From the UHGV virus genome UHGV-0291501: a stretch of 64,000 nt of DNA; one strand, written 5' to 3'. This document shows, in pieces, positions 4,579-37,735 of the stretch. Under the pieces are notes generated by a model. The model was given only the letters and a program-made list of their open reading frames with translations. It had not been told where the DNA came from and searched no databases. A program made the position numbers and the translations under genes. Source of the DNA: a virus. Each line of letters begins with the position of its first letter. Positions within the stretch are counted from its first letter, which is position 1.

Positions 4579-5688
4579 TTAGATTTCACGTTTACGTTGA
4601 GAGATGAGTTCACCAGCGGTGCCAACGATGACATGCAAAGCTTCAGTCTTACCGTCCCATGCTTCCAGCACTTTACGTTGATTATCAACGATTGCTGCAA
4701 CTTCATAACGAGAGGAACGCATCTTCATATCGTTGTAATCAGTTGGAACAGATACAACATCTCGTGGATGTACGCGAACCTTCAGGATTGTATCACCTGA
4801 GAAGCAACGAACATAATCCCAAGCACCAACATGAAGACCTTGAGAGCAAGTTACGTTACGGTTATTATCAACCATCCAACGTGGCATTTCTACAATGTTA
4901 CCCAAATCATTAGGCACTTTGTAGGTGTGAGAGTCAACCAGCTTGCCTTCACGAGTAGAGACTTTCTTCCAACCAATGATGTAGCCTTCTTCATCAATCT
5001 CAACATCAAGGTGAGATACAAATCCCCAAAGTTGTTCTACAGAATCTTTAGATGGGTTTTCCATCAGTTTTTCGAAGAACATTACAAGTCGTTCAAAACC
5101 TTTATCGCCAGTTTTCATCATGTGAAGAATACGGTCAACCAGAGTAGAACGCATCTCAACAGCACCGTAGAATAGCTTGTCACCTTTGATTGTGATAGCG
5201 CCCTGAGTGAAGTTTTCGATAGACTTACGAATGTTCATCAGTTCAAAGGCTTTCTTAAACTCACCTTTCACAACATGAACTACAATCTCTTGATAGTTCG
5301 GATGAGTAGATTCAACAATTTCAGACTCTGAACCGTAAGTCATAATTACAGAGTCACCAGTAATCATGTACTCAATCTTGTCATCTTTCTGCATAGCTTC
5401 ATGCAGTTTATTTACTGGAGCTTTCTGTACAGCCTCTTTAACAACCTTTTCAACTGGTTTGCCAGTTTTCTTTTTAACTGACTTAGCAACTTGCTTTAGG
5501 GTCTTCTTAGCTGGCTTAGAAGTTGCCTTTTTCTTACCTTTTAAGGTTGCTTCATGACGCTCTACAGCACGACCAACTGAACGGGTTGAAGTATTGAACT
5601 TCTGTGCGATAGCTGTTTTAGTCAGCTTACCTTCTTTAACCAGTTCGTAAATTTCTGCGTCAATCTGTGCTTTAGTTTTAGTAGTCAT
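4579..5688 (-). CDS. rIIB: rIIB-like protein
   Basis: Immediately downstream of the rIIA-like gene as in T4; central region (LFYGAVEMRSTLVDRIL ... ENPSKD ... EEGYIIGWKKV) resembles rIIB as I recall it; lysine-rich N-terminal linker. Confidence 0.45.
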   Translation of the reverse strand: MTTKTKAQIDAEIYELVKEGKLTKTAIAQKFNTSTRSVGRAVERHEATLKGKKKATSKPAKKTLKQVAKSVKKKTGKPVEKVVKEAVQKAPVNKLHEAMQKDDKIEYMITGDSVIMTYGSESEIVESTHPNYQEIVVHVVKGEFKKAFELMNIRKSIENFTQGAITIKGDKLFYGAVEMRSTLVDRILHMMKTGDKGFERLVMFFEKLMENPSKDSVEQLWGFVSHLDVEIDEEGYIIGWKKVSTREGKLVDSHTYKVPNDLGNIVEMPRWMVDNNRNVTCSQGLHVGAWDYVRCFSGDTILKVRVHPRDVVSVPTDYNDMKMRSSRYEVAAIVDNQRKVLEAWDGKTEALHVIVGTAGELISQRKREI

Positions 5689-5767: not shown

Positions 5768-8134
5768 TTAATCGTAAATTGTAGTCCCTTCTGGAACACA
5801 CTTCACATCAAAGCCTAAGAACTTACTCACTTCGATGGGTGACACTTTATTCCAATCTAAATGAGAAAGCAAGAAGTTTTCTTGTTTTCTTTTTGAAAGG
5901 TAGTTTGTCACCTTAATGACCATACGGTCACCAGCTTTCTTAATTTTCTTGTACAGCTTTGTATCATTGTCAAGGCAGTCTTTCAAAGTTTGCAACCTAC
6001 TAATAGTGTAAGTATATGCAAACGGTGCAGCAACGTATTGGATTTTACCAAACATTGCCTCTACAGCATCTTCATTGCCTTCTAAGAAGATAGTTTTGTT
6101 TGTATCCCGTGAATAACAATAGCCACGAGAAATCTTCCTGTTATTGAACGTAAAGTTTCTGGCAATAATCCAACTGCTTGTAAGGTCGAGGACACCATTC
6201 ATATAGATACGTGTCATATACCTGTTATGATTAATCCAATGAACATCAGTTAAGCTGTCGTTCAAGAGCTTCTCATCTACTTCAATCCAGTCTTCTGGTA
6301 TCTTTTTCCAATTTGCTTTTCGGAAAACATAGACTGTCTTACCTGTAACATTAGCAACTGACTTAGCTACATCTTCTGGAGATGAGCAAAAACATTCGCC
6401 ATCAACTGTGTCACCAACTGCCTTAATGTAAAGCTGAGGTTCTTCAATTGTATCAAAGTCCTCTGAAACCTCTTTATAGGAAGCTACACCTTCTGCTGGA
6501 ACAGCTTTCCAGAGTTTTACAACACCTCTTACAGCTTCTTTACGCTGATAATGGTGTTCCTTATCAGACATCTTCACAATCTTTAACAAGCTTTTATCAA
6601 GTTTGTGCAGATTGATTAGGTCGTCTAACTCTTTTTCAGTCGAGAATACAAAGACAATACCATTGTATCTGTGAAACAGACTAGACTCACTGGCATAGTC
6701 TCGACATGCACCACGCAAGATTTGATTGCGTCCTACAGTCTTCTCAGTACCGTTTTTATTGCGACGGTCATTTATAACAAACAAAAACTGTTCAATTTGG
6801 CTTTTACGCATTGCGCCAAAGATATTGAACATACTTGCCTCTTGAGTGTAGGAAAGCGATGTTGCACGAATCTTACTCTCTAAAGAGTTGAACTTGACAT
6901 AAGCAACTGGGTCATAAAGATAATCTACTTTAGGTATATTGTTCCCGTTCCTATCAACCTTAATATTACCTTTACCGTCACGTTCATAAATGACTGAGCC
7001 GTCTTCTGCGTAGATAATTCCACGACGAATGTTTAGTAATTCTTCTTCCAGAGAATCAAGCTTAACACCACCCCACTCTAGCTTTGGACACACAGCATTA
7101 AACATCTCTCGTGAGTTCAAACGTAACTCAGCATAAGCCTGTGCAGCATCCATGAGTGTGGGCTGATTGTTAATCTTTTTGATAACATCCTTTGTAATGG
7201 CTTCAGTTATCTTTTTGGTAGCCTCAATGATGACATTTTTTGTCGTATCATTCATCTGCAATGCTTCACGAGAAGCTGCAATAGCAACTGAACCAATAGG
7301 CATGTAGATGTTTACAAGGTCTACGCTCCTACGGAAAAATTCTGGCAATACTTTGAAGAAATCATCACCAAGTAATGCTTCCATGTTAACAGGGTAGGCA
7401 ATGTTACCCATCACCACATTAAACTCTGTCCTGTTATCACTAGAACGCCAGCTGTGCTTATGAATCATGGCATCATAAACACCTTCTTCACGGGCAATGA
7501 CGTTCATATCTGCTAATACATCGTCGTACTCAATATTACTTTCTGGTTTTACAGTGAAGTATGAGTACACATTCCCAGCTTCTTCAAAGAACTTTGAGAT
7601 ACGGTGGTCAGCAACCGCCACACGTACAGCTAAACCATTAGGTTCTTTTGTTGGGTTAGTTGTCAGCTTAGTTACTTGAGGGATACCATTCTCAAGATAA
7701 ACAGAGTACTTATTAACAACACCATCAACATAGCTAGATACTGTGAATGACTGAGCAATTGCAAATGGTGACTTTGAGCCGATACCCATTGCACCAATGT
7801 AGTCATTAGAGTCATTCTTCGTAGAAGCTCCATAGTTTAGGTACAAACTCATAACTTTATCATGAGTCAATCCAGTTCCAAAATCACGAACTTCGAAGTA
7901 AGGCTCAAAACGAGTAGGTAAATGCACATGGAACGGGATGTTCTCTTTTCCAGCCTCTTTCTGAGCATCTACTGCGTTACATGACAGTTCACGAATCACT
8001 GCCCTTTCTTTAAAGGTATATACACCAGAACTCAAAAGGCTGAACATTTCAGGTGTCATTGTAATCTGTGCTTGAGACGTCTCTAAAGAAGTTGAACTCT
8101 TAATCACTTCTGCGTGGTCGTTTACCATGCGCAT
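5768..8134 (-). CDS. rIIA: rIIA-like protein with N-terminal GHKL-type ATPase domain
   Basis: 788 aa; N-box-like CNAVDA, G-box-like RDFGTGL and AMGIGSKS; followed by rIIB-like gene. Confidence 0.55.
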   Translation of the reverse strand: MRMVNDHAEVIKSSTSLETSQAQITMTPEMFSLLSSGVYTFKERAVIRELSCNAVDAQKEAGKENIPFHVHLPTRFEPYFEVRDFGTGLTHDKVMSLYLNYGASTKNDSNDYIGAMGIGSKSPFAIAQSFTVSSYVDGVVNKYSVYLENGIPQVTKLTTNPTKEPNGLAVRVAVADHRISKFFEEAGNVYSYFTVKPESNIEYDDVLADMNVIAREEGVYDAMIHKHSWRSSDNRTEFNVVMGNIAYPVNMEALLGDDFFKVLPEFFRRSVDLVNIYMPIGSVAIAASREALQMNDTTKNVIIEATKKITEAITKDVIKKINNQPTLMDAAQAYAELRLNSREMFNAVCPKLEWGGVKLDSLEEELLNIRRGIIYAEDGSVIYERDGKGNIKVDRNGNNIPKVDYLYDPVAYVKFNSLESKIRATSLSYTQEASMFNIFGAMRKSQIEQFLFVINDRRNKNGTEKTVGRNQILRGACRDYASESSLFHRYNGIVFVFSTEKELDDLINLHKLDKSLLKIVKMSDKEHHYQRKEAVRGVVKLWKAVPAEGVASYKEVSEDFDTIEEPQLYIKAVGDTVDGECFCSSPEDVAKSVANVTGKTVYVFRKANWKKIPEDWIEVDEKLLNDSLTDVHWINHNRYMTRIYMNGVLDLTSSWIIARNFTFNNRKISRGYCYSRDTNKTIFLEGNEDAVEAMFGKIQYVAAPFAYTYTISRLQTLKDCLDNDTKLYKKIKKAGDRMVIKVTNYLSKRKQENFLLSHLDWNKVSPIEVSKFLGFDVKCVPEGTTIYD

Positions 8135-34822: not shown

Positions 34823-35923
34823 ATGACAATTCTATACAAACAAAATAAAGATGGCTCTTTTAACGTCTGGTCATGTGTCGCTGTAGGTGACAAAGTTATT
34901 ACAACCTATGGTAAAGAAAATGGCAAGATGATGTTTGAAGAGTATACAGCAGAACCTAAAAACATCGGTAAAAAGAATGAGCGTAACGCTGAACAGCAAG
35001 CTCTCTTTGAAGTTGCTGCTAAGTATAAAAAGCAAGTTGACCGTAAAGGTTATGCTTACACAAAAGAGTCTGCACAGAATACTGAGAAGGTAGGTGTACA
35101 GCTTGCTCATGATGCTGCAAAGGTTAGTCATGCAAAGTATCTGAAGTTCCCTGCTGATGCTCAACCAAAACTTGATGGTGTTCGTTGTAGAATTTCAAGA
35201 GATGCTGATTCAGTTAGCTTCACGGCTTATTCTCGTGAGAATACTGTTTACAACGTCCCAGTAGAACTAATCCCAGATTTGCTTTTGTTGCTTAAATTGC
35301 ATCCACAAGTAGAAGACTTTGATGGTGAGATTTATGCTCATGGTTGGGACTTAGAAGATATTGTGTCTATGATTAAGAATGCTGACAATCCAGACCGACA
35401 TCTACTCCAGTTCTACTGGTACGATATCTGTGACAGCACTAAGACGTGGCCTGAGCGTAGAGATATTATTGAGACTTCACCTATTGTTGAGCTTGGGGAT
35501 ACCTGTAGAGTGGTTCCTGTACAGACTATCCGTGTAAATTCTTGGGAAGAGTTTGATGAAGCCCATGATAAGTGGGTTGAAGCTAAGTTTGAAGGTGCAA
35601 TGTACCGTTCAATCTCTGAAGACTCCTTCTATGAGTGTGGTCACCGTTCATACTTCTTGATTAAGCACAAGAAGATGCACACTGAAGAGTTTAAAGTAAC
35701 TGGTGTAAAGACTGATAAACGTGGTCATGGTAAGTTCGTCGTAGAGACTCTTCCTAACGTCTTTGTAGATGTCTCATGGAAGACTACTCATGAGAAGAAA
35801 CAGTATCTTGCTGAACATCCTGAAGAGTTTATCGGGAAACCTTTAACTGTTCAGTTCCAGAAGATGACTCGTAAGGGTTCTTTACAGTTCCCTGTTGGGT
35901 TAGTTATTCGAGATTACGAATAA
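34823..35923 (+). CDS. ATP-dependent DNA ligase
   Basis: Adenylation motif I KLDGVRC; size like T7-type ligases. Confidence 0.8.
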   Translation: MTILYKQNKDGSFNVWSCVAVGDKVITTYGKENGKMMFEEYTAEPKNIGKKNERNAEQQALFEVAAKYKKQVDRKGYAYTKESAQNTEKVGVQLAHDAAKVSHAKYLKFPADAQPKLDGVRCRISRDADSVSFTAYSRENTVYNVPVELIPDLLLLLKLHPQVEDFDGEIYAHGWDLEDIVSMIKNADNPDRHLLQFYWYDICDSTKTWPERRDIIETSPIVELGDTCRVVPVQTIRVNSWEEFDEAHDKWVEAKFEGAMYRSISEDSFYECGHRSYFLIKHKKMHTEEFKVTGVKTDKRGHGKFVVETLPNVFVDVSWKTTHEKKQYLAEHPEEFIGKPLTVQFQKMTRKGSLQFPVGLVIRDYE

Positions 35924-35930
35924 AAAGTTG

Positions 35931-35958
35931 TTGACATAGAAAATTTGGTGAGTATACT
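35931..35958 (+). promoter_or_regulatory. Near-consensus sigma70-type promoter TTGACA-N16-TATACT
   Basis: Read directly just after the ligase stop; would transcribe into the G/T-rich non-coding region. Confidence 0.45.
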
Positions 35959-36035
35959 GAGCAGCATAAACCAACGGGTACTCACCAGCATCACTTAAGA
36001 GTCTTCTAAGAGGGTTTTTAAGTAATGTGATGTTT

Positions 36036-36119
36036 GGTTTGGTGTGGTCAGGTAATGTGATGTCTGGTTTAGTGCGGTGATGTGCGGTCCGGTAAGGTCC
36101 GGTGCGGTAAAGTGCGGGT
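36036..36119 (+). repeat. Phased pentamer tract 1A: about 17 tandem (G/N)GTNN units
   Basis: ggttt ggtgt ggtca ggtaa tgtga tgtct ggttt agtgc ggtga tgtgc ggtcc ggtaa ggtcc ggtgc ggtaa agtgc gggta; strict 5-bp phase. Confidence 0.7.
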
Positions 36120-36177
36120 AGTTAGTCTCAGCTACATTAAAATGAGACTTACCTTTTTAAAAGGTCTTTAAGAGGGT
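36116..36177 (+). repeat. 62-bp hairpin module, copy 1 (identical to 37527-37588)
   Basis: gggtagttagtctcagctacattaaaatgagacttacctttttaaaaggtctttaagagggt; 7-bp stem agtctca/tgagact; 15-bp palindrome acctttttaaaaggt. Confidence 0.75.
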
Positions 36178-36186
36178 TTTTTAATG

Positions 36187-36270
36187 AGGTAGGGTAAAGT
36201 AATGTTTGGTCTGGTTTGGTAAGGCGCGGTCTGGTTTGGTAAGGTAAGGTTCGGTATGGTATGGGTGGAT
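36187..36270 (+). repeat. Phased pentamer tract 1B: about 17 GGTNN units
   Basis: ggtag ggtaa agtaa tgttt ggtct ggttt ggtaa ggcgc ggtct ggttt ggtaa ggtaa ggttc ggtat ggtat gggtg. Confidence 0.7.
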
Positions 36271-36297
36271 GGTAGTAGCCACGTTAAAAATCTACCA
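36270..36297 (+). other. Stem-loop (6-bp stem, 16-nt A-rich loop) conserved with a compensatory change in region 2
   Basis: tggtag-tagccacgttaaaaat-ctacca here versus tggcag-tagccttataaaaaat-ctgcca at 37671-37698. Confidence 0.5.
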
Positions 36298-36354
36298 AGT
36301 TTCTAAAGAGTCTTCTGTTGAGGGTTCTTTACAAACAACTTAACAATCAACTAA

Positions 36355-36960
<606 letters not shown>

Positions 36961-36962
36961 TT

Positions 36963-37403
36963 ATGAATACAAAAGCATTAGCAGCAAAGTTTAGTTACGG
37001 TGACACTGTATCACATTCTGAGATGGACACCTTCTTAGGTATTGTGAAGCCAACTTATCAAGGTGACATTGTTAAGTACGAAGATGAAATGAAGGCTTAT
37101 GCGCTTACACGTCTAAACCGACTTGAGAAGTTTATTGAGAAGCTTCTTAAAGAAGAGAAGATTTATCTGGTTGCTTCAATGGGTGTTGGTTATCGTGTGG
37201 TTGAACCTAAGCATCAAGCAACTATTGCAAAACGTAAAATGTCTGGTAAAATTGGTCGTGCTTTAAAGCAAGCTACTCAAGCAATTGAGAATGTGAACAC
37301 TATGGCACTTAGCCACCAAGAACGTTCACGACTAATTGAACAGCAAAACCATTTAGCTGCTATGAAAGCTAACATTAACAAGCAACGTAGAAAACCTTTC
37401 TAA
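36963..37403 (+). CDS. Hypothetical protein (cassette gene 2), helical, basic C-terminus
   Basis: 146 aa; tightly coupled to the upstream gene; followed by a terminator. Confidence 0.5.
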   Translation: MNTKALAAKFSYGDTVSHSEMDTFLGIVKPTYQGDIVKYEDEMKAYALTRLNRLEKFIEKLLKEEKIYLVASMGVGYRVVEPKHQATIAKRKMSGKIGRALKQATQAIENVNTMALSHQERSRLIEQQNHLAAMKANINKQRRKPF

Positions 37404-37414
37404 GTTGACTAGGT

Positions 37415-37437
37415 AGCCTCTTCGGAGGCTCCTTTTT
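37415..37437 (+). terminator. Rho-independent terminator
   Basis: Hairpin agcctc-ttcg-gaggct followed by CCUUUUU. Confidence 0.55.
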
Positions 37438-37462
37438 AAAAGGTCTTTAAGAGGGTCTTTTA

Positions 37463-37530
37463 ATGAGGTAGTATACGGTATGGTGGGGTAGGGTGAGGTC
37501 TGGTTTGGTAAGGTAGGGTCTGGTATGGGT
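37463..37530 (+). repeat. Phased pentamer tract 2A: about 13 GGTNN units
   Basis: ggtag tatac ggtat ggtgg ggtag ggtga ggtct ggttt ggtaa ggtag ggtct ggtat gggta. Confidence 0.7.
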
Positions 37531-37588
37531 AGTTAGTCTCAGCTACATTAAAATGAGACTTACCTTTTTAAAAGGTCTTTAAGAGGGT
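37527..37588 (+). repeat. 62-bp hairpin module, copy 2 (identical to 36116-36177)
   Basis: Same 62-bp string as copy 1, compared by eye base for base. Confidence 0.75.
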
Positions 37589-37596
37589 CTTTTAAC

Positions 37597-37665
37597 AAGG
37601 TTAGGTTAGGTCTGGTGTGGTAGGGTTAGGTGGGGTTAGGTTTGGTATAGTTTGGAAGGATGGCA
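37597..37665 (+). repeat. Phased pentamer tract 2B with telomere-like TTAGG/TTAGGG units
   Basis: ggtta ggtta ggtct ggtgt ggtag ggtta ggtgg ggtta ggttt ggtat. Confidence 0.7.
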
Positions 37666-37670
37666 GTAGC

Positions 37671-37698
37671 CTTATAAAAAATCTGCCAAATAAGCTAT
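37671..37698 (+). other. Stem-loop paralogous to 36270-36297
   Basis: tggcag-tagccttataaaaaat-ctgcca; T:A to C:G compensatory pair relative to region 1. Confidence 0.5.
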
Positions 37699-37706
37699 AA
37701 AATCTG

Positions 37707-37735
37707 TTGACAAGTCAGGTGTTATAGCTTATTTT
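37707..37735 (+). promoter_or_regulatory. Weak sigma70-like promoter candidate (TTGACA-N17-TATTTT)
   Basis: Perfect -35 but poor -10; a better -10 (tatact, about 37736) is 23 bp away, so function is uncertain. Confidence 0.25.

Follow-up and report, generated by a model that had tools for sequence, protein, structure and literature searches.

VIPR (Viral Interference Programmable Repeat) systems, first described on 25 June 2026, are CRISPR-like systems for RNA-guided DNA binding (bioRxiv 10.64898/2026.04.26.720920). Their loci encode Vipr, a minimal RAMP homolog with an RRM core, a G-loop and a thumb, together with Vap, an accessory protein, and the flanking intergenic regions (IGRs) encode guide RNAs, the vrRNAs (bioRxiv 10.64898/2026.04.26.720920). 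A vrRNA is about 100 nt long and consists of 9-16 YNNGG repeats (at least four for detection), in which GGY is conserved and NN is hypervariable, and an invariant tail of about 40 nt, which is pseudoknotted in the SUSP1 clade (bioRxiv 10.64898/2026.04.26.720920). In phage SUSP1 the vrRNAs are expressed as small RNAs that co-purify with Vipr; the Vipr-vrRNA complex binds double-stranded DNA (dsDNA) through the NN bases only, skipping one base of the target, and represses transcription (bioRxiv 10.64898/2026.04.26.720920). The SUSP1 clade, defined by a Vipr at least 90% identical to that of SUSP1, has 41 unique vrRNAs, natural targets are identifiable for 20 of them, and its guides are aimed mainly at a satellite phage of E. 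coli; some satellites carry an array of their own (bioRxiv 10.64898/2026.04.26.720920). Here we analyzed a 62-nt module that is present twice in a 64,000-nt stretch of the virus genome UHGV-0291501 (the window), and which an earlier reading of the letters alone (the sequence-only reading) had singled out. With high confidence we assign the surrounding locus, 35931-37735, to type II VIPR and, within it, to the SUSP1 clade; its carrier is a Felix O1-like phage. In two VIPR guide RNAs the module provides the structured 3′ end that stays constant, and it also takes in most of the adjoining spacer hairpin. The feature belongs to an already described system, and no mechanism is added here beyond the published one (bioRxiv 10.64898/2026.04.26.720920).

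Two other described systems invite comparison. The effector backbone of Class 1 CRISPR-Cas likewise joins a variable guide to a constant structured handle and uses a protein that interrupts pairing periodically, and VIPR, a newly reported mode of RNA-guided DNA recognition, has been proposed as an ancestor of CRISPR effectors. The window locus nevertheless differs from Class 1 CRISPR-Cas in lacking a CRISPR array, cas1/cas2 and all other cas genes: no array of repeats with contiguous spacers was found, Pfam and PADLOC detected no cas families in the cassette, and the RAMP fold alone is shared. The guide is also non-contiguous, two of every five RNA bases pairing with two of every three DNA bases, and VIPR requires no protospacer-adjacent motif and acts by binding and repression, not by cleavage (bioRxiv 10.64898/2026.04.26.720920). 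TRAP of B. subtilis is similar in that a multi-subunit protein reads a conserved triplet per 5 nt of single-stranded RNA. However, its fold is unrelated, the 2-3-nt spacers between its triplets are devoid of information, and no DNA recognition is guided by it; the likeness is one of periodicity only.

The window locus has the features by which VIPR loci are recognized, namely a RAMP homolog, a two-gene operon between long IGRs (434 bp and 376 bp on the open reading frame map), YNNGG vrRNAs and a pseudoknotted tail. SUSP1 (NC_028808.2) has the same order of ligase, IGR, 195-aa gene, 146-aa gene and IGR, and its two proteins are 97.9% (Vipr) and 99.3% (Vap1) identical to those of the window (Table 1), which places the window Vipr within the SUSP1 clade. 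The 195-aa protein also matches PDB entry 36pp, "SUSP1 Vipr protein" (six chains), with E=6e-128 and 191/195 identical residues, and the 195-aa gene is therefore vipr. Its structural model has a Cas7-type RAMP fold, and a Gly/Arg-rich block at the C-terminus (G170, G174, R179, G183 and F185) is invariant. Pfam and PADLOC returned nothing for either cassette protein, and both proteins fall into PHROGs of unknown function. The promoter, both types of leader hairpin, the YNNGG guides and tails A, B and B′ are likewise common to the two phages, and the guides of both match the same satellite family under a rule that skips one base. The systems differ in that the vrRNAs are distributed 1+3 around the cassette in SUSP1 (as published) and 2+2 in the window, and all four NN codes of the window differ from those of SUSP1. 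Furthermore, the host genomes belong to Suspvirus and Felixounavirus, respectively, and, unlike the SUSP1 system, that of the window includes two guides with no identified target.

The sequence-only reading had claimed an exact duplication between differing pentamer tracts, and both points were borne out. An exact search of the window found the 62-nt string twice on the + strand with 0 mismatches, flanked by tracts that are 5-nt periodic and divergent. A third copy was found on neither strand of the window with up to 3 mismatches allowed, and 100 dinucleotide shuffles yielded 0 matches. In TH10, the closest complete genome (89 kb, 98.6% identical), there are two copies of the module and four pentamer tracts and no more; the many genome-wide copies that would have indicated a generic terminator are absent. 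The 62-nt boundary itself is arbitrary, as the module opens on the GG of a final repeat unit and closes within a hairpin, and the two copies part ways one base past its end (GGGT|T versus GGGT|C). Repeat analysis resolved four units and not two modules; every unit starts with a leader hairpin, continues as a pentamer tract and closes with a structured element; tails, spacers and pentamers are the only repeats detected at the locus, and the two module copies flank the vipr-vap1 cassette. What the sequence-only reading missed is this larger system of four guide RNAs and two proteins.

Strong constraint or recent gene conversion had been offered as the reason for the identity of the copies. Constraint holds, for the tail is almost unchanged over about 15 related phages and a specific, strongly constrained element between hypervariable tracts is well supported. 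There is no need to postulate intragenomic conversion, given that the copies within KhF3, and likewise within AYO145A, are 1 nt apart. The copies are presumably identical because they represent a protein-recognized handle and a processing or punctuation element, the flanks being programmable guides.

The tail is an RNA structure. The 7-bp hairpin AGTCTCA/TGAGACT with a 12-nt loop, pointed out earlier, is present in the sequence but is not a lone hairpin; it forms stem 2 (S2) of an H-type pseudoknot, in which an upstream GTAG pairs with a CTAC inside the presumed loop. Tails A, A′, B and B′ share this topology, with a stem 1 (S1) of 4 bp and an S2 of 5-7 bp, and the A′ variant carries the stem AAUCGGA/UYCGAUU. 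Paired cells in the alignments amount to 100% in A-type and 95.6% in B-type tails, and sliding the partners by 1-3 columns lowers these values to 22-44%. Pairs changed on both sides number three in A-type and three in B-type tails (six in total), so that both stems are supported by covariation.

These results bear on whether the module could instead be one rho-independent terminator, built of a hairpin and a T-run, that is used at two places. Such a reading would account for the U5 run after the tail and for the stability of the tail hairpin (-9.3 kcal/mol, z -2.9), and the ASO1B record marks terminators immediately upstream of the equivalent positions. In an intrinsic terminator, however, one expects a U-tract directly after a short, G+C-rich stem whose loop spans 3-8 nt; the module does not conform, having a 12-nt loop and an AU-rich stem in which 2/7 pairs are G-C, and a consensus terminator scan called the vap1 terminator only (37415-37430). 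The module is moreover confined to one locus in an 89-kb genome, its loop pairs with the upstream GUAG in a fold whose two stems covary, tails B and B′ lack a U-run, and the same RNA co-purifies with Vipr in SUSP1 (bioRxiv 10.64898/2026.04.26.720920). We therefore regard a dedicated terminator as quite improbable. Termination at the U5 run may still be one job of the module, which is compatible with its being the 3′ end of a vrRNA.

A second possibility was that the module is a dsDNA site for a dimeric protein, for instance an operator or a partition site of the StbAB type. The near-perfect 15-bp palindrome ACCTTTTTAAAAGGT, which had suggested a dimeric site from the start, does occur in both copies, its central 13 bp recur at 37431-37443, and the KhF3 record notes a possible binding site of StbAB. 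The palindrome is not kept at equivalent junctions, however, neither in SUSP1, which reads TTACACCACTTAAGAG there and lacks it, nor next to A′ tails, and no StbA- or ParR-like protein is encoded nearby. It arises by accident where the tail end and the U-run meet the 5′ arm of the hairpin that follows. The conserved pairings at the locus also require G.U pairs and can form in + strand RNA only; this holds for the direct repeat GGTCTTT...GGGTCTTT, which exists as described but consists of two hairpin arms. A period of 5 bp is, in addition, ill suited to binding on one face of dsDNA and counts against such a site. A role as a dsDNA site is thus very improbable. The suggestion that the module acts at the RNA level, implicit in the earlier proposal to probe the transcript by SHAPE or in-line probing, is supported by folds that need + strand RNA.

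The same holds for the hairpins that precede the guides. Type-1 and type-2 leader hairpins show compensatory differences when their sequences are compared, and they fold solely as + strand RNA with G.U pairs, which pointed to a function at the RNA level. Among phages, the type-2 spacer hairpin varies in its loop only. Because the same hairpin stands after the vap1 terminator, ahead of vrRNA3, it is part of the 5′ side of the following guide and not of the preceding tail. Folding of the whole IGRs was uninformative (z -0.9 and -4.0), and a search of Rfam gave no family match in the window, vrRNAs being absent from Rfam 15. We also noted that the type-1 spacer hairpin recurs in degenerate form, CTAAAGAGTCTTCTGTTGAGGGTTCTTTAC, just ahead of vipr and past tail B (36303-36332); all cassette-bearing phages keep this copy, and its Shine-Dalgarno-like AGGG may couple vrRNA2 processing to vipr translation.

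The pentamer tracts are four vrRNA guide regions of 11-17 YNNGG units in which the GG-T core is conserved and NN is hypervariable. With the pentamers (n=56) written as N-G-G-T-N, the third and fourth positions are G and T, respectively, in 55/56 cases each, the second is G in 45/56, and the first and fifth are free. Four such tracts occur in the window, all on the + strand, and C is nearly absent from them (as few as 1-10 per tract). From phage to phage the NN codes vary while GGY is retained, and codes are shared and reshuffled among phages in the manner of spacers; that of vrRNA2, for example, is common to KhF3, tootiki, AYO145A and heid, and that of vrRNA4 is unique among the loci compared. 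The vrRNA2 guide of Bas63 carries three extra copies of (AT TA) internally, relative to an otherwise identical guide in KhF3, tootiki and AYO145A, and replication slippage can therefore lengthen guides.

Several other readings of the tracts were set aside. Translation of the tracts, or of mini-ORFs (open reading frames) after the Shine-Dalgarno-like AAGAGG, was dropped since the start codons are not conserved. Elements resembling boxA/nut, ops or Chi, BREX GGTAAG sites, T7-primase-type pentamers, telomere-like or G-quadruplex repeats and consensus pause arrays were dropped on common grounds: position 5 has no base preference, and the VIPR literature explains the pattern. A protein-sponge RNA was among the hypotheses considered before the literature search, and VIPR was adopted instead.

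Could G-rich, C-poor tracts form R-loops that prime replication, as at T4 oriF or ColE1, with the module punctuating an origin? The promoter matches 11/12 consensus positions, the GC skew of the tracts is extreme, with 1-10 C in the C-poorest, and the locus lies among replication genes. On the other hand, the number of units ranges from 1 to 5, and the hypervariability of the tracts is limited to the NN positions. Unrelated phages carry these arrays many times over in one genome, adjoining Vipr genes, and the cumulative GC skew merely tracks gene strand. Moreover, the NN codes match satellite genes. We accordingly give an R-loop origin almost no credence.

The match to satellite genes was established as follows. 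The satellite was found by blastn with a SUSP1 baseplate gene and is present in 474/5426 complete E. coli genomes; nine variants were scanned under the NNx (1-nt-skip) rule, and at least 80% NN identity was taken to define a target. As positive controls, SUSP1 vrRNA1 (21/24) and vrRNA2 (28/32), each at 88%, scored above all shuffled guides. Skips of 0, 2 or 3 nt gave background only, and the signal thus needs the 1-nt skip. Among the first six satellites, 14/33 unique Felix-like vrRNAs reached at least 80%. Of the window guides, vrRNA3 matched at 19/22 (86%; z ~5), above all shuffles, and at 17/18 with the end units trimmed. For vrRNA1, nine consecutive perfect NN pairs fall in a tape-measure gene, with the skip bases at codon position 3. 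No satellite variant that fits vrRNA1 better was retrieved by a designed BLAST query. In the satellite of E. coli GN4751, we observed an 8-unit YNNGG array of its own on the minus strand (~5057-5140), with a B-type tail, GTGGATTGTCGTAGCCACGTTAAAAATCGAC, whose stem 2 is changed to GUCG/CGAC; this satellite presumably exploits the helper phage's Vipr.

Certain observations weigh against assigning the locus to VIPR, or limit what can be carried over to it. Over its full length vrRNA1 matches at 24/34 (71%; 80% end-trimmed), which is below or at the threshold. In the nine satellites neither vrRNA2 nor vrRNA4 had a target, and for these two guides exact NNx scans of viral, genome and metagenome collections gave nothing but chance-level AT-rich matches. 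The covariation in the tails traces to few independent events (A versus A′ and B versus B′). The folding energy of the spacer hairpins is modest (z -1.6 to -1.8), and we infer that they and the U-run set the vrRNA ends, by termination or processing. The accessory role of Vap1 is putative; vrRNA expression, Vipr binding and repression in the window phage are presumed by analogy with SUSP1; and the mechanism rests on a single preprint (bioRxiv 10.64898/2026.04.26.720920).

On the published model, transcription from the promoter and read-through of vipr-vap1 would yield four vrRNAs of ~100-130 nt, each with 11-17 YNNGG guide units followed by the invariant pseudoknotted tail. Vipr would coat the repeats, holding the GGY triplets and leaving NN to pair with dsDNA. 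Pairing would cover two of every three target bases, the 1-nt skip usually falling on the codon wobble position, and binding would repress a competing mobile element, most likely the 11-kb satellite resident in E. coli chromosomes.

Table 1. Positions of the VIPR locus features in the window
Feature	Position	Strand	Remarks
Sigma-70-type promoter TTGACA-16-TATACT	35931..35958	+	Opens the upstream vrRNA array
Type-1 leader/spacer hairpin CUUAAGAGUCUU-CUAAG-AGGGUUUUUAAG	35994..36022	+	RNA only, needs G.U pairs
vrRNA1 guide	36033..36117	+	17 YNNGG units; degenerate units from ~36024
vrRNA1 NN code	36033..36117	+	TT TT GT CA AA GA CT TT GC GA GC CC AA CC GC AA GC
Module copy 1	36116..36177	+	GG of last repeat, tail A, U5, first 19 nt of next spacer hairpin
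vrRNA1 3′ tail, type A, 36 nt	36118..36153	+	H-type pseudoknot; S1 GUAG/CUAC, S2 AGUCUCA/UGAGACU
U5 run	36154-36158	+	After tail A
Type-2 spacer hairpin UUAAAAGGUCUU-UAAG-AGGGUUUUUUAA	36157..36184	+	Between vrRNA1 and vrRNA2
vrRNA2 guide	36185..36264	+	16 units, units 3-4 degenerate
vrRNA2 3′ tail, type B	36265..36296	+	Pseudoknot; S1 GUGG/CCAC, S2 GGUAG/CUACC
vipr, 195 aa	36373..36960	+	Minimal RAMP (Cas7-like) protein; 191/195 identical to SUSP1 Vipr
vap1, 146 aa	36963..37403	+	Putative accessory protein; 145/146 identical to SUSP1 protein; all-helical model
GC-rich UUCG hairpin + U5, intrinsic-terminator-like	37415..37437	+	After vap1
Type-2 spacer hairpin ahead of vrRNA3	37436..37463	+	Also after vap1 terminator
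vrRNA3 guide	37474..37528	+	11 units, plus 2 upstream units from 37464
Module copy 2	37527..37588	+	Exact string match
vrRNA3 3′ tail, type A, pseudoknot	37529..37564	+	
Type-2 spacer hairpin between vrRNA3 and vrRNA4	37568..37595	+	
vrRNA4 guide	37596..37655	+	12 units; NN code unique among loci compared
vrRNA4 3′ tail, type B′	37656..37687	+	Pseudoknot; S1 AAGG/CCUU, S2 GGCAG/CUGCC
Promoter-like site for 127-aa signal-peptide gene	37707..37735	+	Conserved; right locus edge in all relatives

The window phage is Felix O1-like (Felixounavirus, TH10/wV8-like), and the locus lies within a + strand cluster for replication and nucleotide metabolism. DNA polymerase and ligase (34823-35923) are encoded upstream, and a 127-aa signal-peptide protein, a transcriptional regulator, dihydrofolate reductase and thymidylate synthase downstream. 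About 15 related phages have the same promoter boundaries without change, but they hold anything from 1 to 5 units and either have the cassette or lack it; the upstream promoter, which is unchanged throughout the Felix-like loci as well as in SUSP1, agrees with the consensus at 11/12 positions. An 8-bp inverted repeat, GGTGAGTA (35947-35954) ... TACTCACC (35979-35986), lies on either side of the -10 element of the vrRNA promoter and its predicted start site. All relatives keep this repeat, and it represents a candidate operator through which vrRNA/vipr expression would be regulated.

Felix-like phages have direct terminal repeats of ~0.6 kb (PMC8303462, PMC4837284) and some records end near the locus, which raised the possibility that it lies at or near the genome terminus and that its repeats are packaging or concatemer signals, comparable to the arrays by the T7 terminal repeats. 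In UAB_Phi87, however, whose ends were mapped experimentally (PMC4837284), the genome of 87.6 kb has the locus at 58 kb and its ends in the tRNA cluster; a terminus role is therefore excluded in that phage, and we consider it hardly credible for the window.

Public records describe the region in other terms. GenBank KT184315 (KhF3) annotates a "possible binding site of StbAB", MZ726792 (ASO1B) a "rho-independent terminator", and small hypothetical ORFs placed over the vrRNAs also figure in the records considered, which included JN225449 (Phi87_107/108), MZ501086 (bas63_0038) and MK482689. In the light of VIPR, these annotations (terminator, StbAB binding site and small hypothetical ORFs) look wrong. 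The PhageMaP/Bas63 paper contains nothing on this locus.

Vipr is encoded in ~118/260 Felix-like records. By record name it is found in 77/120 Escherichia and 17/77 Salmonella phages, a bias that fits a target satellite resident in E. coli chromosomes. About 45% of Felix O1-like phages, which find wide use in typing and therapy, carry this anti-satellite system, and most of the others retain guide RNAs without the protein: the Vipr-less phages (~55% of records) have 1-2 orphan vrRNA units between the same two promoters. Some orphans are intact and match the satellite strongly, no worse than other guides do (S19cd_vr1 at 32/34, Bas63_vr1 at 19/22); in Felix O1 and Ro111lw the GGY repeats of the orphans have decayed. 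UAB_Phi87 was also among the loci compared for such Vipr-less arrays.

Spacer and tail modules stand as direct repeats on both sides of the vr2-vipr-vap1 block (36116-36184 versus 37436-37595), and the architecture of Bas63 equals that of tootiki minus this block. Comparison of the two layouts suggests that the cassette was lost or gained by homologous recombination at the constant modules. Identical NN codes recur at different positions and in different phages, consistent with recombination between modules. It is conceivable, though on balance we doubt it, that the modules serve as recombination joints that shuffle, duplicate or delete guides and the whole vr2-vipr-vap1 block, leaving about half of these phages with orphans that still work. 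If so, orphan vrRNAs might be loaded in trans by Vipr that a second phage brings into the same cell, or might serve as decoys, titrating the Vipr of a rival. Orphan vrRNA arrays, and cassette loss between repeated modules, are modestly new observations; the word "orphan" is absent from the preprint text (bioRxiv 10.64898/2026.04.26.720920).

VIPR loci can be found from the DNA pattern alone. A scan of IMG/VR for (GGTNN)x7GGT returned degenerate arrays in a large number of viral contigs that are not related to one another; a genome often has several, and a hairpin often follows each array. Among loci selected by the array pattern alone, an ORF matching a Vipr hidden Markov model was present in the flank examined in 50/74 cases with degenerate arrays versus 0/46 with simple tandem repeats; such ORFs usually lie within 1 kb of the array on the same strand. 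Rfam gave no match in the six other array loci searched (L028, L031, L036, L041, L043 and L047).

The layout of the arrays in these viruses varies. The 189-kb contig IMGVR_UViG_3300029288_001872 contains 11 arrays or more, and after several of these come GAGGGT and a terminator-like hairpin; in locus L047 a 28-nt hairpin and an array together make up a unit that stands five times in tandem; and some viral arrays consist of ~9 units punctuated by GGCA, with a super-period of 49 nt. Directly after the arrays of L041 (~822-870) and L043 (~6119-6170) stands the T-arm-like sequence GGTTCGATTCC. tRNA genes were ruled out there, as ARAGORN calls none, and the sequence may be the tRNA-like tail of another VIPR type.
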